From the sequence record NC_014260.1: a stretch of DNA of 64,000 nucleotides. One strand, 5' to 3'. The DNA is from Escherichia phage IME08. Positions 21,557 to 25,435 of this stretch are shown piece by piece. The notes below the pieces were generated by a model. It made no database searches. It saw only the letters and a program-made list of their open reading frames with translations, and had not been told where the DNA came from. The first letter of the stretch is position 1, and every line of letters starts with the position of its first letter. Position numbers and translations under genes: made by a program.

Positions 21557-21940
21557 TTATTCTAACGTCAGCAAATACTTAGTCTGGTAAAAGACGCCAG
21601 TGATATCGTCCAAAGTCGACTGGATGGCCTTGGGAAGGGTGTCATAGATTTTATCAGTTGCTTTAAGAAGCTCATCAAGGAAATCTACAGGGTCCTTAGG
21701 CAAGTCTGAAGCAGACGGTAATGATGCTTTATATTCTTTGCCACTGAATCCAAGATATTGCTCACTAAATTGGTCCAGAGGTCCTTGAACTTCTACATAA
21801 TAGAAGTCATACGCTTTGTGTCTTGCATAGCTTTTGGTTTCTAAATGGGCTGACTTAAAATAGGCTAAAGAAACCAGTAGCCAACCAATATAAGAATCCA
21901 CTTCAGACCCTCGACCGGGTACGAAATCATTGAATTTCAT
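21557..21940 (-). CDS. Hypothetical protein (127 aa)
   Basis: ORF downstream of rI. Confidence 0.45.
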   Translation of the reverse strand: MKFNDFVPGRGSEVDSYIGWLLVSLAYFKSAHLETKSYARHKAYDFYYVEVQGPLDQFSEQYLGFSGKEYKASLPSASDLPKDPVDFLDELLKATDKIYDTLPKAIQSTLDDITGVFYQTKYLLTLE

Positions 21941-22220
21941 CTTCTACCTTCATTAGTTTTGCATAACGCTCTCCGATGGCACGACCTTCAATTGAGCATG
22001 CTTCTATAGTCCGACAACTTGAATTCTTCCAGGAAGCCGTAACATAGGCCCAATAGTCTTCGGAGGCCTTTACGCTTGGTCTACTCATTTGCGCATAAAC
22101 AGGCATCGCACTACTAGCAAACGCGTCCATCAATTTATCGTTGGTATCATTTGCTAGTGAAACTGAAGGGCCTAAACATCCCGCCATAAGGATACAAGCC
22201 GCTGTACGGAAAATATCCAT
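21927..22220 (-). CDS. rI: Lysis-inhibition regulator RI (antiholin)
   Basis: 97 aa, same length as T4 RI; N-terminal signal-anchor-like segment and C-terminal KNSSCRTIEACSIEGRAIGERYAKLMKVE resembling T4 RI KNDPCSSDFECIERGAEMAQSYARIMNIK; adjacent to tk. Confidence 0.7.
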   Translation of the reverse strand: MDIFRTAACILMAGCLGPSVSLANDTNDKLMDAFASSAMPVYAQMSRPSVKASEDYWAYVTASWKNSSCRTIEACSIEGRAIGERYAKLMKVEDEIQ

Positions 22221-22309: not shown

Positions 22310-22317
22310 TATTTATA
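22310..22317 (-). promoter_or_regulatory. Candidate late promoter upstream of rI
   Basis: Minus-strand TATAAATA overlapping the stop codon of the upstream gene. Confidence 0.35.
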
Positions 22318-22591
22318 GCTTTTTAAGCTTACGACAATAAGAATAGAACACGTCGTTAAAATTATATTCAACCCAATTCCTCTGTATAGGCGAGGTAATG
22401 GAAAGCATATAATGCGCTTTAATTAAATCCATCCCATTTTTATTAGGACACTCTTTATTATTAGCATTATACGTCGCTGCTACAACCTCTATCTCTCTTT
22501 TGTAAGCCACATCATCCATGATAGGCGAAAGAACAATATAAGAAATAGCCACAGCGAACGCTAGAATTAAAATCTTTGAATTTAGGTCCAT
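22313..22591 (-). CDS. Membrane-anchored hypothetical protein
   Basis: 92-aa ORF with N-terminal TM segment, between tk and rI. Confidence 0.45.
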   Translation of the reverse strand: MDLNSKILILAFAVAISYIVLSPIMDDVAYKREIEVVAATYNANNKECPNKNGMDLIKAHYMLSITSPIQRNWVEYNFNDVFYSYCRKLKKL

Positions 22592-22598
22592 AGTACCC

Positions 22599-23171
22599 TC
22601 AACTCGTTATTTCTATCCAGTGCTTCCTGCACAATGACACGTAAGAATCGTTGCCACCTATAGAAACTTGGGCTCCGTCCTTAATTGCGATACCATCTTG
22701 GATACGAGCCGTCATAGTAGCTTTACGGCCGCAATGGCACACACCTTTATACTCAACGAGTTTATCTGCCGTAGCGAGTAATTCAGCAGAGCCAGGAAAC
22801 AGTTTACCCTGAAAATCAGTTCTTAGTCCATAGCACATAACTGGAACATTATAATTGTCTACTATCTTGGCCAGTTGTTTTATCTGTACAGGTTCTAAGA
22901 ATTGCGCTTCATCCACAAACACACAGTGGATATCTTTTTGAGATTCAGCCCAACGATAGAACTCGTATAGGTCCATATCCGGAGTCACTGCATTAGCCTC
23001 TTGGCTAATCCCTATACGAGATGAAATGCTATGGCTTGATTCTCTATTGTCTATCGCAGGCTTTAAAAGGAGTACGCCCATACCGCGTTCTTTGTAGTTA
23101 TGAGCGGCCGTTAGCAATGAAGCAGTCTTCCCAGAATTCATTGCAGCATAGTGAAAATAAAGTTGAGCCAT
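22599..23171 (-). CDS. tk: Thymidine kinase
   Basis: 190 aa; Walker A NSGKTASLL, zinc-ribbon CHCGRKAT...CRKH typical of type II thymidine kinases; matches T4 Tk. Confidence 0.9.
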   Translation of the reverse strand: MAQLYFHYAAMNSGKTASLLTAAHNYKERGMGVLLLKPAIDNRESSHSISSRIGISQEANAVTPDMDLYEFYRWAESQKDIHCVFVDEAQFLEPVQIKQLAKIVDNYNVPVMCYGLRTDFQGKLFPGSAELLATADKLVEYKGVCHCGRKATMTARIQDGIAIKDGAQVSIGGNDSYVSLCRKHWIEITS

Positions 23172-23387: not shown

Positions 23388-23575
23388 TATTCTTCTACAT
23401 GCTGTTTACGTTTATTTTTATCTATAAAAGTATATTCAACATATTCACCTATATACCATTTATCGGTGTTGTGTTGACTTTTTATAGGGCATTTAGTTAC
23501 TCGAGTTTCGGTCCAGCGTCGAATAATTTCCGCTTTGTTTTTAGGGTCAAACGGATGTGGGTAATGGGCTTTCAT
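23363..23575 (-). CDS. Hypothetical protein
   Basis: 70-aa ORF. Confidence 0.4.
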   Translation of the reverse strand: MKAHYPHPFDPKNKAEIIRRWTETRVTKCPIKSQHNTDKWYIGEYVEYTFIDKNKRKQHVEEYCLKVQWL

Positions 23576-24014
23576 AATCTACCACCACTAAATTGATATC
23601 AGGAGTAAACAAATTAATCAATTGATAAACCTTGTCCCAATCACCACCAGCAATACCACAACCAATGCGAGGAATATAAATTCTTGGTTTAAACAAAAGA
23701 CCTTTTGCGGTACGGTTTAATTCTATCATACAGTTTACTAAAGCACCATAATCAAGATTAGGGCCTGGCTCGTATTGCGTATAAAGATTATAGCAAATTT
23801 GCCCATTATTACCTGTGGCTTGAGTAAATGTGCCAAGTTTTTCTACACCGCCTAAATAAGTGGTTTTATCGATAGCGAGAATAGGCGGATAAGCCTTAGC
23901 CAATTGTCCGGCTACACCTGAACCCATTGTATGGAAACAATTGCACCCGTGTGCAACATTATTACCTTGAAGAAACAGGGCGACGATATCGCCCTTAATA
24001 TAATCAATAATCAT
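23547..24014 (-). CDS. Macro-domain-like protein (possible ADP-ribose binding/processing)
   Basis: 155 aa; GNNVAHGCNCFHTMGSGVAGQL resembles the macro-domain N...GGG(V/I).G.I loop; assignment by motif only. Confidence 0.4.
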   Translation of the reverse strand: MIIDYIKGDIVALFLQGNNVAHGCNCFHTMGSGVAGQLAKAYPPILAIDKTTYLGGVEKLGTFTQATGNNGQICYNLYTQYEPGPNLDYGALVNCMIELNRTAKGLLFKPRIYIPRIGCGIAGGDWDKVYQLINLFTPDINLVVVDYESPLPTSV

Positions 24015-24367
24015 TTAGAATTTAATCCTCGGTTGTACGAGTCAACGAGTCTGTCTACCATAGACGCGCACATTTCTTTGTACTTTTTATCAGATGGAAC
24101 ACATTCAGTAACGTTTAGACGTTGCTCGTACCTTTTAGAAAGAGTTTTCTCTTTCATTCTGCGATGCTCTACGTCGTTCTGTCCATCTTTAAAAGCCGCT
24201 GTGATTTTTGAACTGAATTCGATAACGCATTCAGTATTACTTGGATGACAATAATCTTTTGCTGTGCGGGTAGCATACTCAACAATTGAATTATTGCTAT
24301 CATCAACTTGTGACGCTAATACTCCCGGAGCTATCAACATAAGCGCTATAGTCATCTGCTTAATCAT
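24011..24367 (-). CDS. Secreted/periplasmic hypothetical protein
   Basis: 118 aa with N-terminal signal peptide MIKQMTIALMLIAPGVLASQ. Confidence 0.45.
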   Translation of the reverse strand: MIKQMTIALMLIAPGVLASQVDDSNNSIVEYATRTAKDYCHPSNTECVIEFSSKITAAFKDGQNDVEHRRMKEKTLSKRYEQRLNVTECVPSDKKYKEMCASMVDRLVDSYNRGLNSK

Positions 24368-24907
24368 TTAGTATACCGCCTCAAACATCTTTTTAGATTT
24401 TAGGTAATTGGCCTTTTCTAGAACTTCAGAAGCATACTTACTGCCTGCTTTGACGTTCCAGCCCGCATTATAAGAAGCAATCGCTTTTCTCAGGTCACCT
24501 TTGTGAACATCAATCCAATAAGACAGCTCAATGTAGGCCCAAGAGGCACTGTTCTGTCGTTTTTGGACCATGCGAATTATTTCTTTGTCTGACATCTTCC
24601 AACCTACCTGTTGAACACGACTTCTTAACGTAGGCAAGTAATTTTGGAACATGCCATAAGCATGGTGCTTATCTTTATTTAAACCCTGATTAATTCCGGC
24701 AGATGATTCCTGCCATAGTAATCCGGCCATGATATATCCTAATCCTTTTTGATTAGGGTTTTCTTTGAACTTTCCCGACTTTTGGTATTGTTCACCGAAA
24801 GCATACGCATAATGTAAATTATCGAGTTGTTCATTACTGAAAGTAGGCTCTACGCTATGGGCAGACATACTAACTGTCAATAGTAAAGTGGCTAATACTT
24901 TTTTCAT
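24368..24907 (-). CDS. Secreted lytic transglycosylase (SLT domain)
   Basis: 179 aa; signal peptide MKKVLATLLLTVSMSAHS; SLT motifs WQESS (catalytic Glu-Ser), AYGMFQ, SYNAG. Confidence 0.6.
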   Translation of the reverse strand: MKKVLATLLLTVSMSAHSVEPTFSNEQLDNLHYAYAFGEQYQKSGKFKENPNQKGLGYIMAGLLWQESSAGINQGLNKDKHHAYGMFQNYLPTLRSRVQQVGWKMSDKEIIRMVQKRQNSASWAYIELSYWIDVHKGDLRKAIASYNAGWNVKAGSKYASEVLEKANYLKSKKMFEAVY

Positions 24908-24919
24908 GAGACCTCATTA

Positions 24920-25378
24920 TTAAAGATAGATTACTTTCGTGCTGGTTTTACCTTCTAAACGTTTAGAGTTAACAAATGCCATACGACATTTAAGGGAATA
25001 TCCTTTATCAGGATGTTTACGGTCTACGGTCATACCTAGCCATAAGGTTTTATCGGTAATTTCGAGACGCAATGGACGATACACTTTACCAGGGACAATT
25101 TCGGATTCTACATCAGGCAGAGGTTCCTGGATTAAGAATTCATGGATTTCTTTAACATGGTTATGGAGTTGCTTGAATAAAGCAAAAACGTATTTTTCGT
25201 CGATTTCACGTTGGATAGCACGGTCCAACAAATGATTAGAGTACTTAATAAAGAAGGCTGGGACTCCGCTCTTAACGGCGGCTTTTTTGATGGACGCATT
25301 CAGTTCGCGGAATTCGGTTTCGAACTGACGACGTAATTTGTTGCGGCGGATGAATACTTCTGAATTAATTTCTGACAT
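24920..25378 (-). CDS. regB: Site-specific endoribonuclease RegB
   Basis: 152 aa (T4 RegB 153); EVFIRRNKLRR.FE.EFR...HLLDRAIQREIDE.YVF.LF matches T4 RegB. Confidence 0.85.
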   Translation of the reverse strand: MSEINSEVFIRRNKLRRQFETEFRELNASIKKAAVKSGVPAFFIKYSNHLLDRAIQREIDEKYVFALFKQLHNHVKEIHEFLIQEPLPDVESEIVPGKVYRPLRLEITDKTLWLGMTVDRKHPDKGYSLKCRMAFVNSKRLEGKTSTKVIYL

Positions 25379-25406
25379 TTTGTAATCTCCTGTAGTTGAT
25401 AGGTTT

Positions 25407-25435
25407 ATAGTATCATGTCTACAGGAGATGTAAAC
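25407..25435 (-). promoter_or_regulatory. T4-type early promoter upstream of regB
   Basis: Minus strand GTTTAC, 17 nt, TACTAT, then AAACCTATCAAC; inverted repeat CCTGTAG/CTACAGG spans the -10. Confidence 0.6.

Follow-up and report, generated by a model that had tools for sequence, protein, structure and literature searches.

Three open reading frames lie close together between the tk and regB genes of Escherichia phage IME08, and the question raised by the locus is what these frames encode and how the encoded proteins might serve the phage during infection. The window, i.e. the whole stretch of DNA that was analysed, comprises 64,000 nucleotides of sequence record NC_014260.1, and derives from a T4-like Dhakavirus that shares 96-98% identity with phages IME341, AnYang and Bp7.

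Organisation and identity of the locus

A first-pass annotation, made from the DNA sequence alone, had described three minus-strand frames encoding proteins of 155, 118 and 179 aa between tk and regB. The coordinates, strand and flanking genes were all confirmed, with the frames tightly packed between positions 23547 and 24907:

22599-23171: tk, flanking gene (Pfam TK, 6.8e-57)
23547-24014, minus strand: tk.4 (adfM), 155 aa, macrodomain of the TARG1/DarG/SCO6735 class, stand-alone
24011-24367, minus strand: vs, 118 aa, annotated as a valyl-tRNA synthetase modifier
24368-24907, minus strand: vs.1, 179 aa, GH23/SLT fold, predicted Sec-exported soluble protein
24920-25378, minus strand: regB endoribonuclease, upstream neighbour (Pfam REGB_T4, 4.8e-69)
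25407-25434, minus strand: promoter-like sequence immediately 5' of regB (TTTACA, 16 nt, TACTAT, with TG), from a consensus scan and reading of the sequence

The stop codon of vs.1 abuts the ATG of vs, the stop codon of vs overlaps the ATG of tk.4, and a GGAG ribosome-binding site could be read for regB. Since the 155-, 118- and 179-aa proteins each have a strong phage-family match (PHROG E-values of 6e-67, 3.7e-34 and 1.9e-67, respectively) and phage orthologues that number from hundreds to thousands, the frames represent real genes as opposed to chance occurrences. Plus-strand frames overlapping the three genes returned no family matches, and neither did an Rfam search of the region. Comparison with named genes of related phages and of T4 revealed that all three are already-named T4 genes, namely tk.4, vs and vs.1, an identity that the first-pass annotation had missed; for each of the three proteins, a counterpart with 100% identity is encoded in public phage records. 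The region itself is therefore ordinary and already known; indeed, the macrodomain and SLT similarities of these genes were in print by 2006 (PMC1524935).

The gene order regB-vs.1-vs-tk.4 is retained in all 27 of the Vs-encoding viral contigs, and data obtained by others with T4 indicate that in that phage tk.4, vs and vs.1 are all non-essential. The three early, non-essential genes form a syntenic block, situated downstream of regB in a T4-like phage. The site at 25407-25434 is probably the early promoter of a regB-vs.1-vs-tk.4-tk.3-tk.2-tk string, but is suggestive only, because promoter-like sites in the region do not exceed the shuffled expectation. A terminator-like hairpin at 23977-23995, within the tk.4 coding sequence, was dismissed, such sites being within the number expected from shuffled sequence.

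Tk.4 is a stand-alone macrodomain

The assignment of the 155-aa protein as a macrodomain, put forward in the first-pass annotation on the strength of an N...GSGVAG loop, was borne out. Tk.4 matches Pfam Macro (PF01661) at 5.9e-8, scoring 33.1 bits (cutoff 22) and covering profile positions 2-117 of 118, and matches phrog_335 at 6.1e-67. The fold was examined by comparing a profile of the family with solved structures, which revealed full-length homology to macrodomains, spanning approximately 135-150 residues in each case. Matches were obtained to 2fg1 (4.9e-20), TARG1 (4e-18), SCO6735 (1.6e-16), yeast Poa1p (1.5e-14) and DarG (PDB 5m3i and 5m31; 2.5e-11 and 1.3e-9). The loop itself is present as N25 together with G31-S-G33-V-A35-G. 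Among 56 homologues, N25, G33, A35, G118 and G120 are invariant, with conservation of 90% or more at G31, A122, G123 and G124; the conserved asparagine and the two glycine-rich ADP-ribose/phosphate-binding loops by which macrodomains are recognised are, in other words, all in place. Two codons are of particular relevance:

23940-23942, minus strand: Asn25 codon of Tk.4 (HGCNC), the conserved macrodomain asparagine, invariant in 56 of 56 homologues
23775-23777, minus strand: Gln80 codon of Tk.4 (CAA), invariant in 56 of 56 homologues and aligned to TARG1 K84

N25 is likely to correspond to N22 of Thermus aquaticus DarG and N23 of PhiKZ AdfM (residues from PMC13309987). Residue K84 of TARG1 is equivalent to K80 of DarG and to Gln85 of SCO6735 (PMC9411070), and the pairing of Tk.4 Q80 with SCO6735 Q85 is through the alignment of each to TARG1 K84, the middle portions of the two sequences not being directly aligned. 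A lysine of the DarG type is thus absent from Tk.4, its place being taken by the invariant Gln80, whereas K80 of DarG and K78 of PhiKZ AdfM are the catalytic lysines of those proteins (PMC13309987). In addition, profile alignment places A122 of Tk.4 opposite D125 of TARG1.

Tk.4 belongs to the same macrodomain class as DarG, but scored only 20.2 bits against the DarG equivalog NCBIfam NF048014 (cutoff 250), the match being confined to profile positions 3-138 of 338. The C-terminal DarT-binding domain carried by DarG is absent from Tk.4, which stops at residue 155. A similar architecture is found in SCO6735 of Streptomyces coelicolor (PDB 5e3b). This protein, too, is a stand-alone macrodomain, and its substrate is ADP-ribose linked to thymidine on DNA, which it cleaves; like Tk.4, it is devoid of a DarT-binding domain, has glutamine in place of the catalytic lysine, and lacks the TARG1 aspartate. 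Unlike tk.4, however, the SCO6735 gene is a bacterial chromosomal gene with a DNA-damage promoter, as opposed to a phage counter-defence gene. Since Q85A abolishes the activity of SCO6735 on thymidine-linked ADP-ribosylated DNA (PMC9411070), the glutamine is of evident importance in that protein. The presence of Gln80 in place of the DarG/TARG1 catalytic lysine, and of Ala122 in place of TARG1 Asp125, indicates that Tk.4 is of the SCO6735 type, in which case its chemistry would probably proceed via an activated water molecule and not via lysine.

The T4 orthologue is likewise 155 aa in length, is 54% identical over that full length, and is encoded at the same place, between vs and tk.3. The two proteins have N25, Q80 and both glycine-rich loops in common, and differ in the genus of origin (Tequatrovirus versus Dhakavirus) and in a divergent loop at residues 60-75.

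A probable role for Tk.4 against DarTG2

Host DarTG2 ADP-ribosylates thymidine in DNA, and a counter-defence role for the T4 macrodomain was published in 2025, when tk.4 was named adfM, for anti-DarT factor macrodomain (bioRxiv 10.1101/2025.11.20.689424). In that preprint, tk.4 was the single DarTG2-specific hit in a transposon screen, clean knockout of the gene rendered T4 more sensitive to DarTG2, and the AlphaFold2 model of the T4 protein matched DarG; the evidence for T4 AdfM is genetic. Resistance to DarTG2 is retained by T4 without adfA and adfN (PMC11825919), and, in vitro, PhiKZ AdfM strips thymidine-modified DNA of its ADP-ribose (PMC13309987). Because the T4 tk.4 knockout is sensitised to DarTG2, the likely job of the protein is the removal of ADP-ribose from phage DNA. 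Tk.4 of the present phage is a cytoplasmic stand-alone macrodomain that most likely hydrolyses the ADP-ribose put by DarT2 on thymidine in single-stranded phage DNA, the same reaction proposed for DarG and PhiKZ AdfM, and in so doing would neutralise the DarTG2 defence. Protection from DarTG2 by a Tk.4-type AdfM is demonstrated for T4 alone. The identity between the present protein and the T4 protein tested genetically is only 54%.

Two other roles have to be weighed against this one. The first-pass annotation had tied the macrodomain to the modification of host proteins with ADP-ribose by the phage itself, which Tk.4 would then read or reverse, and T4-type phages do encode the ADP-ribosyltransferases Alt, ModA and ModB. 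These enzymes modify arginine, however, and macrodomains are not known to cleave the arginine-ADP-ribose linkage. Members of the TARG1 class, to which Tk.4 is matched at 4e-18, can take ADP-ribose off acidic protein residues (PMC9411070), but Tk.4 is without the Lys/Asp dyad that TARG1 employs on protein substrates, and the only condition-specific phenotype reported for T4 tk.4 is the loss of DarTG2 resistance. A host-protein role is accordingly not the best supported and is considered very unlikely. The same T4 phenotype, by pointing to DarT2, argues against Tk.4 being an ADP-ribose 1''-phosphate phosphatase that removes a side product arising from NAD metabolism or the repair of RNA. The PHROG label of Tk.4 is indeed 'phosphatase', an A1pp domain match was reported in 2006 (PMC1524935), and the family profile matches the Poa1p phosphatase at 1.5e-14, yet the label goes back to what the domain was once called and not to an assay, and BT1257, TARG1 and SCO6735 are all matched more strongly than Poa1p. 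A phosphatase function thus seems very improbable indeed, and removal of ADP-ribose from DNA is retained as the preferred role for Tk.4.

Vs.1 is predicted to be an exported GH23/SLT enzyme

The signal peptide and SLT motifs attributed to the 179-aa protein in the first-pass annotation were both found, as was a lysozyme-like GH23 fold. Signal peptides were sought here with a heuristic of our own devising, comprising a basic n-region, a hydrophobic core of approximately 10-15 residues (cores of ~10-13 were found) and a small-x-small cleavage site. The relevant features of vs.1 are:

24854-24907, minus strand: predicted Sec signal peptide of Vs.1, MKKVLATLLLTVSMSAHS followed by VEP, from heuristic n/h/c-region analysis
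24707-24709, minus strand: Glu67 codon of Vs.1 (GAA; WQESS motif), predicted catalytic acid, invariant in 42 of 42 homologues

By the same heuristic, signal-peptide features are present in each of 42 Vs.1 homologues, and a signal peptide is found also in the distant homologues of Ounavirinae and Kuttervirus phages. The signal stretch has low pLDDT values (56-61) in the structure model and is devoid of a lipobox cysteine. Cleavage would leave a mature form of about 161-163 aa, with a mass of 18.6-18.8 kDa and a pI of 9.4, and Vs.1 is accordingly envisaged to undergo Sec export, followed by release into the periplasm as a soluble enzyme of about 18.7 kDa.

All of the catalytic motifs expected of an SLT/GH23 enzyme are present and conserved, with Glu-Ser at E67-S68, G-x-x-Q at G85-M-F-Q88, and (A/S)-Y-N-x-G at Y146-N147-A-G149; residues E67, G85, Q88, N89, Y146, N147 and G149 are invariant among 42 homologues, with S68 retained in no less than 90%. 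At the level of individual sequence profiles, the score against Pfam SLT (PF01464) is below threshold (15.9 bits, gathering cutoff 21.3, E 0.0099), and the family profile matches solved g-type lysozymes only at an E-value of about 0.27. Several Vs.1 homologues carry a precomputed PF01464 match. Vs.1 has a single-Glu GH23 active site and would most likely cleave MurNAc-GlcNAc bonds as a lytic transglycosylase. In size and single-domain architecture it resembles small 'specialised' transglycosylases such as EtgA, but identity to the family 1/GH23 enzymes Slt70, MltE, MltF and EtgA is only 13-18%. It differs from these enzymes also in having a family-specific N-terminal segment (residues 20-56, approximately), and in being phage-encoded, early-expressed and not attached to a known envelope machine.

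The literature on vs.1 function offers nothing beyond the domain note of 2006, in which 'some role in cell lysis' was proposed (PMC1524935). An accessory part in lysis, with Vs.1 acting as a secreted back-up endolysin and not as an early envelope remodeller, would fit with the lysozyme-like fold and with the homologue in phage CHB7, which is annotated as a 'putative lysin' and is located near putative spanin genes. The vs.1 gene, however, resides in the early string behind regB, apart from the lysis genes, and its T4 counterpart tolerates transposon insertions (46 of 52 sites). Lysis by T4 depends, moreover, on a separate endolysin, e, and an early-made, constitutively exported lytic enzyme would be expected to lyse the cell prematurely. 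A lysis function is therefore judged unlikely. A contribution to DNA entry, which had been suggested in the first-pass annotation alongside a possible one to superinfection control, is also unlikely, since expression of Vs.1 from the phage genome has to await the entry of that genome.

Vs: an export signal at odds with the annotated function

The description of the 118-aa protein as secreted in the first-pass annotation was upheld as regards the signal peptide, but had overlooked that the protein is Vs, the annotated modifier of valyl-tRNA synthetase. Vs matches phrog_1256 at 3.7e-34, has the precomputed Pfam assignment PF26829, and is 46% identical to T4 Vs. The latter has the same position, a signal-peptide-like N-terminus, the four cysteines and the C-terminal SMVDRLVDSYNRGL motif; there is no structural difference between the two. 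The signal is located as follows:

24311-24367, minus strand: predicted Sec signal peptide of Vs, MIKQMTIALMLIAPGVLA, with cleavage after residue 18 or 19, from the heuristic

Signal-peptide features were detected by the heuristic in 26 of 27 homologues, the exception being N-terminally truncated, and their character is conserved even though the sequence diverges. One distant homologue has a lipobox (LSGC) instead. Alignments show four invariant cysteines (C40, C47, C89 and C100), which together with the signal peptide are retained in homologues of only about 25% identity. Judged by their spacing, the cysteines could also form a metal site, with the protein remaining in the cytoplasm. In the AF2 model (pLDDT 77.7), helices extend over residues 23-39, 45-67, 73-89 and 94-115, whereas residues 1-21 fall below a pLDDT of 50, placing the N-terminus outside the predicted fold. 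Vs, too, is most likely exported, the mature form being a four-helix protein of about 11.5 kDa (13.4 kDa at full length) that is probably stapled by two disulfides.

The predicted export conflicts with the function given in the literature, namely binding to the cytoplasmic valyl-tRNA synthetase, for which PMC8076793 cites work of Müller and Marchin (1975, 1977). Vs might nonetheless be just what its annotation states, i.e. a cytoplasmic peptide that binds and alters the host enzyme, with a hydrophobic N-terminus that is no functional export signal. The annotation is consistent across records, and the fitness defect of a T4 vs deletion is nutrient-dependent (minimal medium), in keeping with a role in translation. 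Against this stand the canonical signal peptide in every full-length homologue, the substitution of a lipoprotein signal in one, the invariance of the cysteines, an N-terminus that forms no part of the predicted fold, and the insolubility of N-terminally His-tagged T4 Vs on cytoplasmic expression. A cytoplasmic Vs is thus possible but doubtful, and export remains the favoured interpretation.

Distribution of Vs and its relationship to Vs.1

An exhaustive profile search of 1.84 billion proteins for remote Vs relatives returned just 8 representatives at E <= 0.001, all from T4-like phages save for one protein of 3,694 aa. The latter, which comprises 17 near-identical repeats, was rejected as a spurious match with an E-value inflated by repetition. 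No relatives of the Vs fold were found outside the Vs family, which, as judged from sequence, is confined to T4-like phages.

Vs adjoins the vs.1 gene at 27 of 27 loci. By tblastn, Vs.1 was detected in 2009 phage records and Vs in 794, a tally that undercounts diverged copies of Vs. In an Aeromonas phage, regB-vs.1 is not followed by any Vs-like gene, and the Ounavirinae and Kuttervirus homologues of Vs.1 occur in different gene contexts. The idea that Vs is an obligatory partner of Vs.1 was rejected as a general rule and, because Vs.1 is found without Vs in more distant phages, any partnership between the two would be lineage-specific. An analogy for a partner or regulator of this kind is provided by T4 Spackle, which inhibits the gp5 lysozyme. 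It could feasibly be that Vs, listed for some 50 years as a ValRS modifier, is an exported, periplasmic, disulfide-stapled four-helix protein with an envelope role, perhaps as partner or regulator of Vs.1, and that the ValRS association is secondary or belongs to another product; in this full form, the proposal is a speculative one and improbable as it stands.

Implications for T4-like phages

Considered as a whole, the explanation proposed for the three genes, with Tk.4 countering DarTG2 and both Vs.1 and Vs being exported, is likely to be correct. For the T4-type AdfM family, the glutamine that is invariant at the catalytic position is shared with SCO6735, whereas DarG and PhiKZ AdfM have lysine; the two groups of phage 'AdfM' proteins may therefore differ in chemistry. 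Vs.1 represents a conserved, predicted secreted peptidoglycan enzyme of large lytic phages. Finally, the presence of an export signal and four invariant cysteines across the whole Vs family sits badly with the textbook function of this protein.

Organisation of the regB–tk.4 region

The three ORFs that the first-pass annotation had described between tk and regB were all found, on the minus strand, in a tightly packed gene string headed by regB:

24920-25378, regB, head of the gene string
24368-24907, minus strand, vs.1, ORF of 179 aa
24011-24367, minus strand, vs, ORF of 118 aa
23547-24014, minus strand, tk.4, ORF of 155 aa

The string continues beyond tk.4 with two small ORFs (PHROG families 2008 and 653; named tk.3 and tk.2 in phage Bp7) and then thymidine kinase. 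The TAA stop of vs.1 directly abuts the ATG of vs, and the vs stop and tk.4 start overlap as ATGA. Over 2.4 kb the region shares 96-98% identity with the Dhakavirus phages IME341, AnYang, C6 and Bp7, whose records annotate the genes as tk.4, vs and vs.1, and public phage records encode proteins 100% identical to each of the three proteins; identities to the T4 proteins are 54% (Tk.4), 46% (Vs) and 67% (Vs.1). Every element maps to a named, previously described T4-family gene; the original observation holds, and its interpretation does so only in part.

A promoter-like site lies just upstream of regB (TTTACA, 16 nt, TACTAT, with TG), and is only suggestive, since shuffled sequence yields such sites at least as often. 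The regB ribosome-binding site (25385-25392, minus) contains GGAG, the RegB cleavage sequence in a subset of T4 mRNAs (T4 record annotation), which would fit self-regulation of regB, whereas that of vs.1 is GAGG. A G+C-rich hairpin of 8 bp with a T-rich tract behind it (23977-23995, minus) lies approximately 20 nt inside the tk.4 coding sequence, where it overlies the conserved KGDIVALF codons; the region as a whole shows no excess of terminator-like sites. A 92-aa ORF of unknown function with a hydrophobic N-terminal segment (phrog_6298; 22313-22591, minus) is situated between the rI antiholin homologue (21927-22220) and tk, the position of rI.1 in T4. Family searches with plus-strand ORFs overlapping the region returned no matches, and an Rfam search of the region no family match.

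Tk.4 is a predicted SCO6735-like macrodomain

Tk.4 scored 33.1 bits against the Pfam Macro threshold of 22, with the whole domain covered, and a profile of 56 homologues matched solved macrodomains nearly end to end: BT1257 (4.9e-20), human TARG1 (4e-18), SCO6735 (1.6e-16), yeast Poa1p (1.5e-14) and the DarG macrodomains (2.5e-11 and 1.3e-9). This sequence homology argues against a non-macro fold and supports the macrodomain initially proposed for the 155-aa protein. The database label 'phosphatase' derives from the old A1pp domain name, with no assay behind it.

In the family alignment N25 is conserved, as are the two glycine-rich loops; Ala122 aligns with TARG1 Asp125, and the invariant Gln80 aligns with the catalytic Lys84 of TARG1. 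In SCO6735, an enzyme that removes ADP-ribose linked to thymidine in DNA, Gln85 occupies the site of K80 in DarG and K84 in TARG1, and either Q85A or Q85E eliminates activity (PMC9411070); a Gln at the catalytic-Lys position thus appears common to both proteins. Conversely, the PhiKZ protein termed AdfM resembles DarG in its Asn/Lys pair, N23 and K78 (PMC13309987), and the T4-type active site is therefore SCO6735-like as opposed to DarG-like. Tk.4 differs from DarG also in having no DarT-binding domain (20 bits against the NCBIfam DarG model, cutoff 250). Two database entries for Tk.4 homologues, P0139 and P0172 (Shigella phages SHFML-26/SHFML-11; Citrobacter phage CF1), are truncated, one to 130 aa beginning at the MGSG loop and the other to 92 aa with a frameshifted tail, which reflects either faulty annotation or gene decay.

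T4 tk.4 was the single hit in a transposon screen on a host carrying the DarTG2 defence system, a result confirmed with a clean knockout, and the gene was named adfM (2025 preprint, 10.1101/2025.11.20.689424). In agreement, T4 without adfA and adfN remains DarTG2-resistant (PMC11825919). The screen and knockout therefore make reversal of the ADP-ribosylation of phage-DNA thymidine by the DarT2 toxin the best-supported role for Tk.4. Much less likely is the connection first suggested, with ADP-ribosylation of host proteins by the phage itself.

Vs.1 is most likely a periplasmic lytic transglycosylase

The match of Vs.1 to Pfam SLT is marginal (15.9 bits, cutoff 21.3), a single-sequence search of the PDB gave no sequence matches, and the family profile reached g-type lysozymes at an E of about 0.27 only. 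A weak SLT match was published in 2006 for six T4-like phages (PMC1524935), and UniRef names homologues 'Transglycosylase SLT domain-containing protein'. E67 (WQESS), G85 and Q88 (GMFQN), and Y146, N147 and G149 (YNAG) are invariant in the family alignment, the AlphaFold2 model is confident (pLDDT 86, pTM 0.80), and Sec signal-peptide features mark the N-terminus of 42/42 homologues, with no conserved lipobox. Distant homologues from Ounavirinae and Kuttervirus phages keep both signal peptide and motifs. The most probable identity of Vs.1 is therefore a soluble lytic transglycosylase of the periplasm, and its one conserved Glu would favour transglycosylase over hydrolase chemistry. The proposal that it aids DNA entry is unlikely, because vs.1 expression starts only once entry has taken place. 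In T4, 46 of 52 sites in vs.1 tolerate insertions, and a literature search found no paper on Vs.1 function. In several phage records, and in some UniRef entries, the orthologue is called 'RegB', 'endoribonuclease' or 'site-specific RNA endonuclease', names that appear to have slipped over from the adjacent gene.

Predicted export features of Vs

PHROG and database records identify the 118-aa protein as the valyl-tRNA synthetase modifier, Vs. The N-terminus of every full-length homologue follows a basic-hydrophobic-small-x-small pattern, the character of which is kept while the sequence drifts, and T4 Vs shares this signal-peptide-like segment (MTKILVLCIGLISFSASASAD; comparison locus L002, 5387-5734, minus), as do Jiaodavirus-type homologues at about 25-30% identity; in one of these distant homologues a lipoprotein signal, LSGC, replaces it. 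C40, C47, C89 and C100 are invariant throughout the full-length homologues, T4 included. The AF2 model (pLDDT 77.7) is a four-helix domain in which the cysteine pairs flank two helix-hairpin loops and residues 1-21 are unstructured; structure comparison found no fold relatives outside the Vs family. Once mature, Vs would have a mass of about 11.5 kDa in this phage and of about 11.1-11.3 kDa in T4.

The family is tiny, with eight representatives at E <= 0.001 among 1.84 billion proteins, one of these being a repeat artefact. Vs is adjacent to vs.1 in all 27 loci that encode it, and Vs.1 without Vs occurs in more distant phages. Klebsiella phage KpV477 (Jiaodavirus) has an extra 130-aa ORF between vs and the macrodomain gene (L005, 3363-3755) with a clear signal peptide, MKKAAILLCCAFSVNA, giving three consecutive proteins predicted to be exported. 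The Vs of Escherichia phage vB_EcoM_005 (P0225; L012, 3001-3255) is a natural variant of 85 aa that has lost about 33 residues in frame, among them C40, C47 and helix 2; the phage is otherwise near-identical, which fits a dispensable vs.

Deletion of T4 vs impairs plaque formation in minimal medium only, and T4 Vs with an N-terminal His tag is insoluble in the cytoplasm (PMC8076793); both agree, weakly, with export. The predicted signal peptide and cysteines point to export, at odds with binding of a cytoplasmic synthetase. This export-signal paradox of Vs, together with the Gln-type active site across the T4-type AdfM family, is what remains noteworthy in a locus of otherwise known genes.
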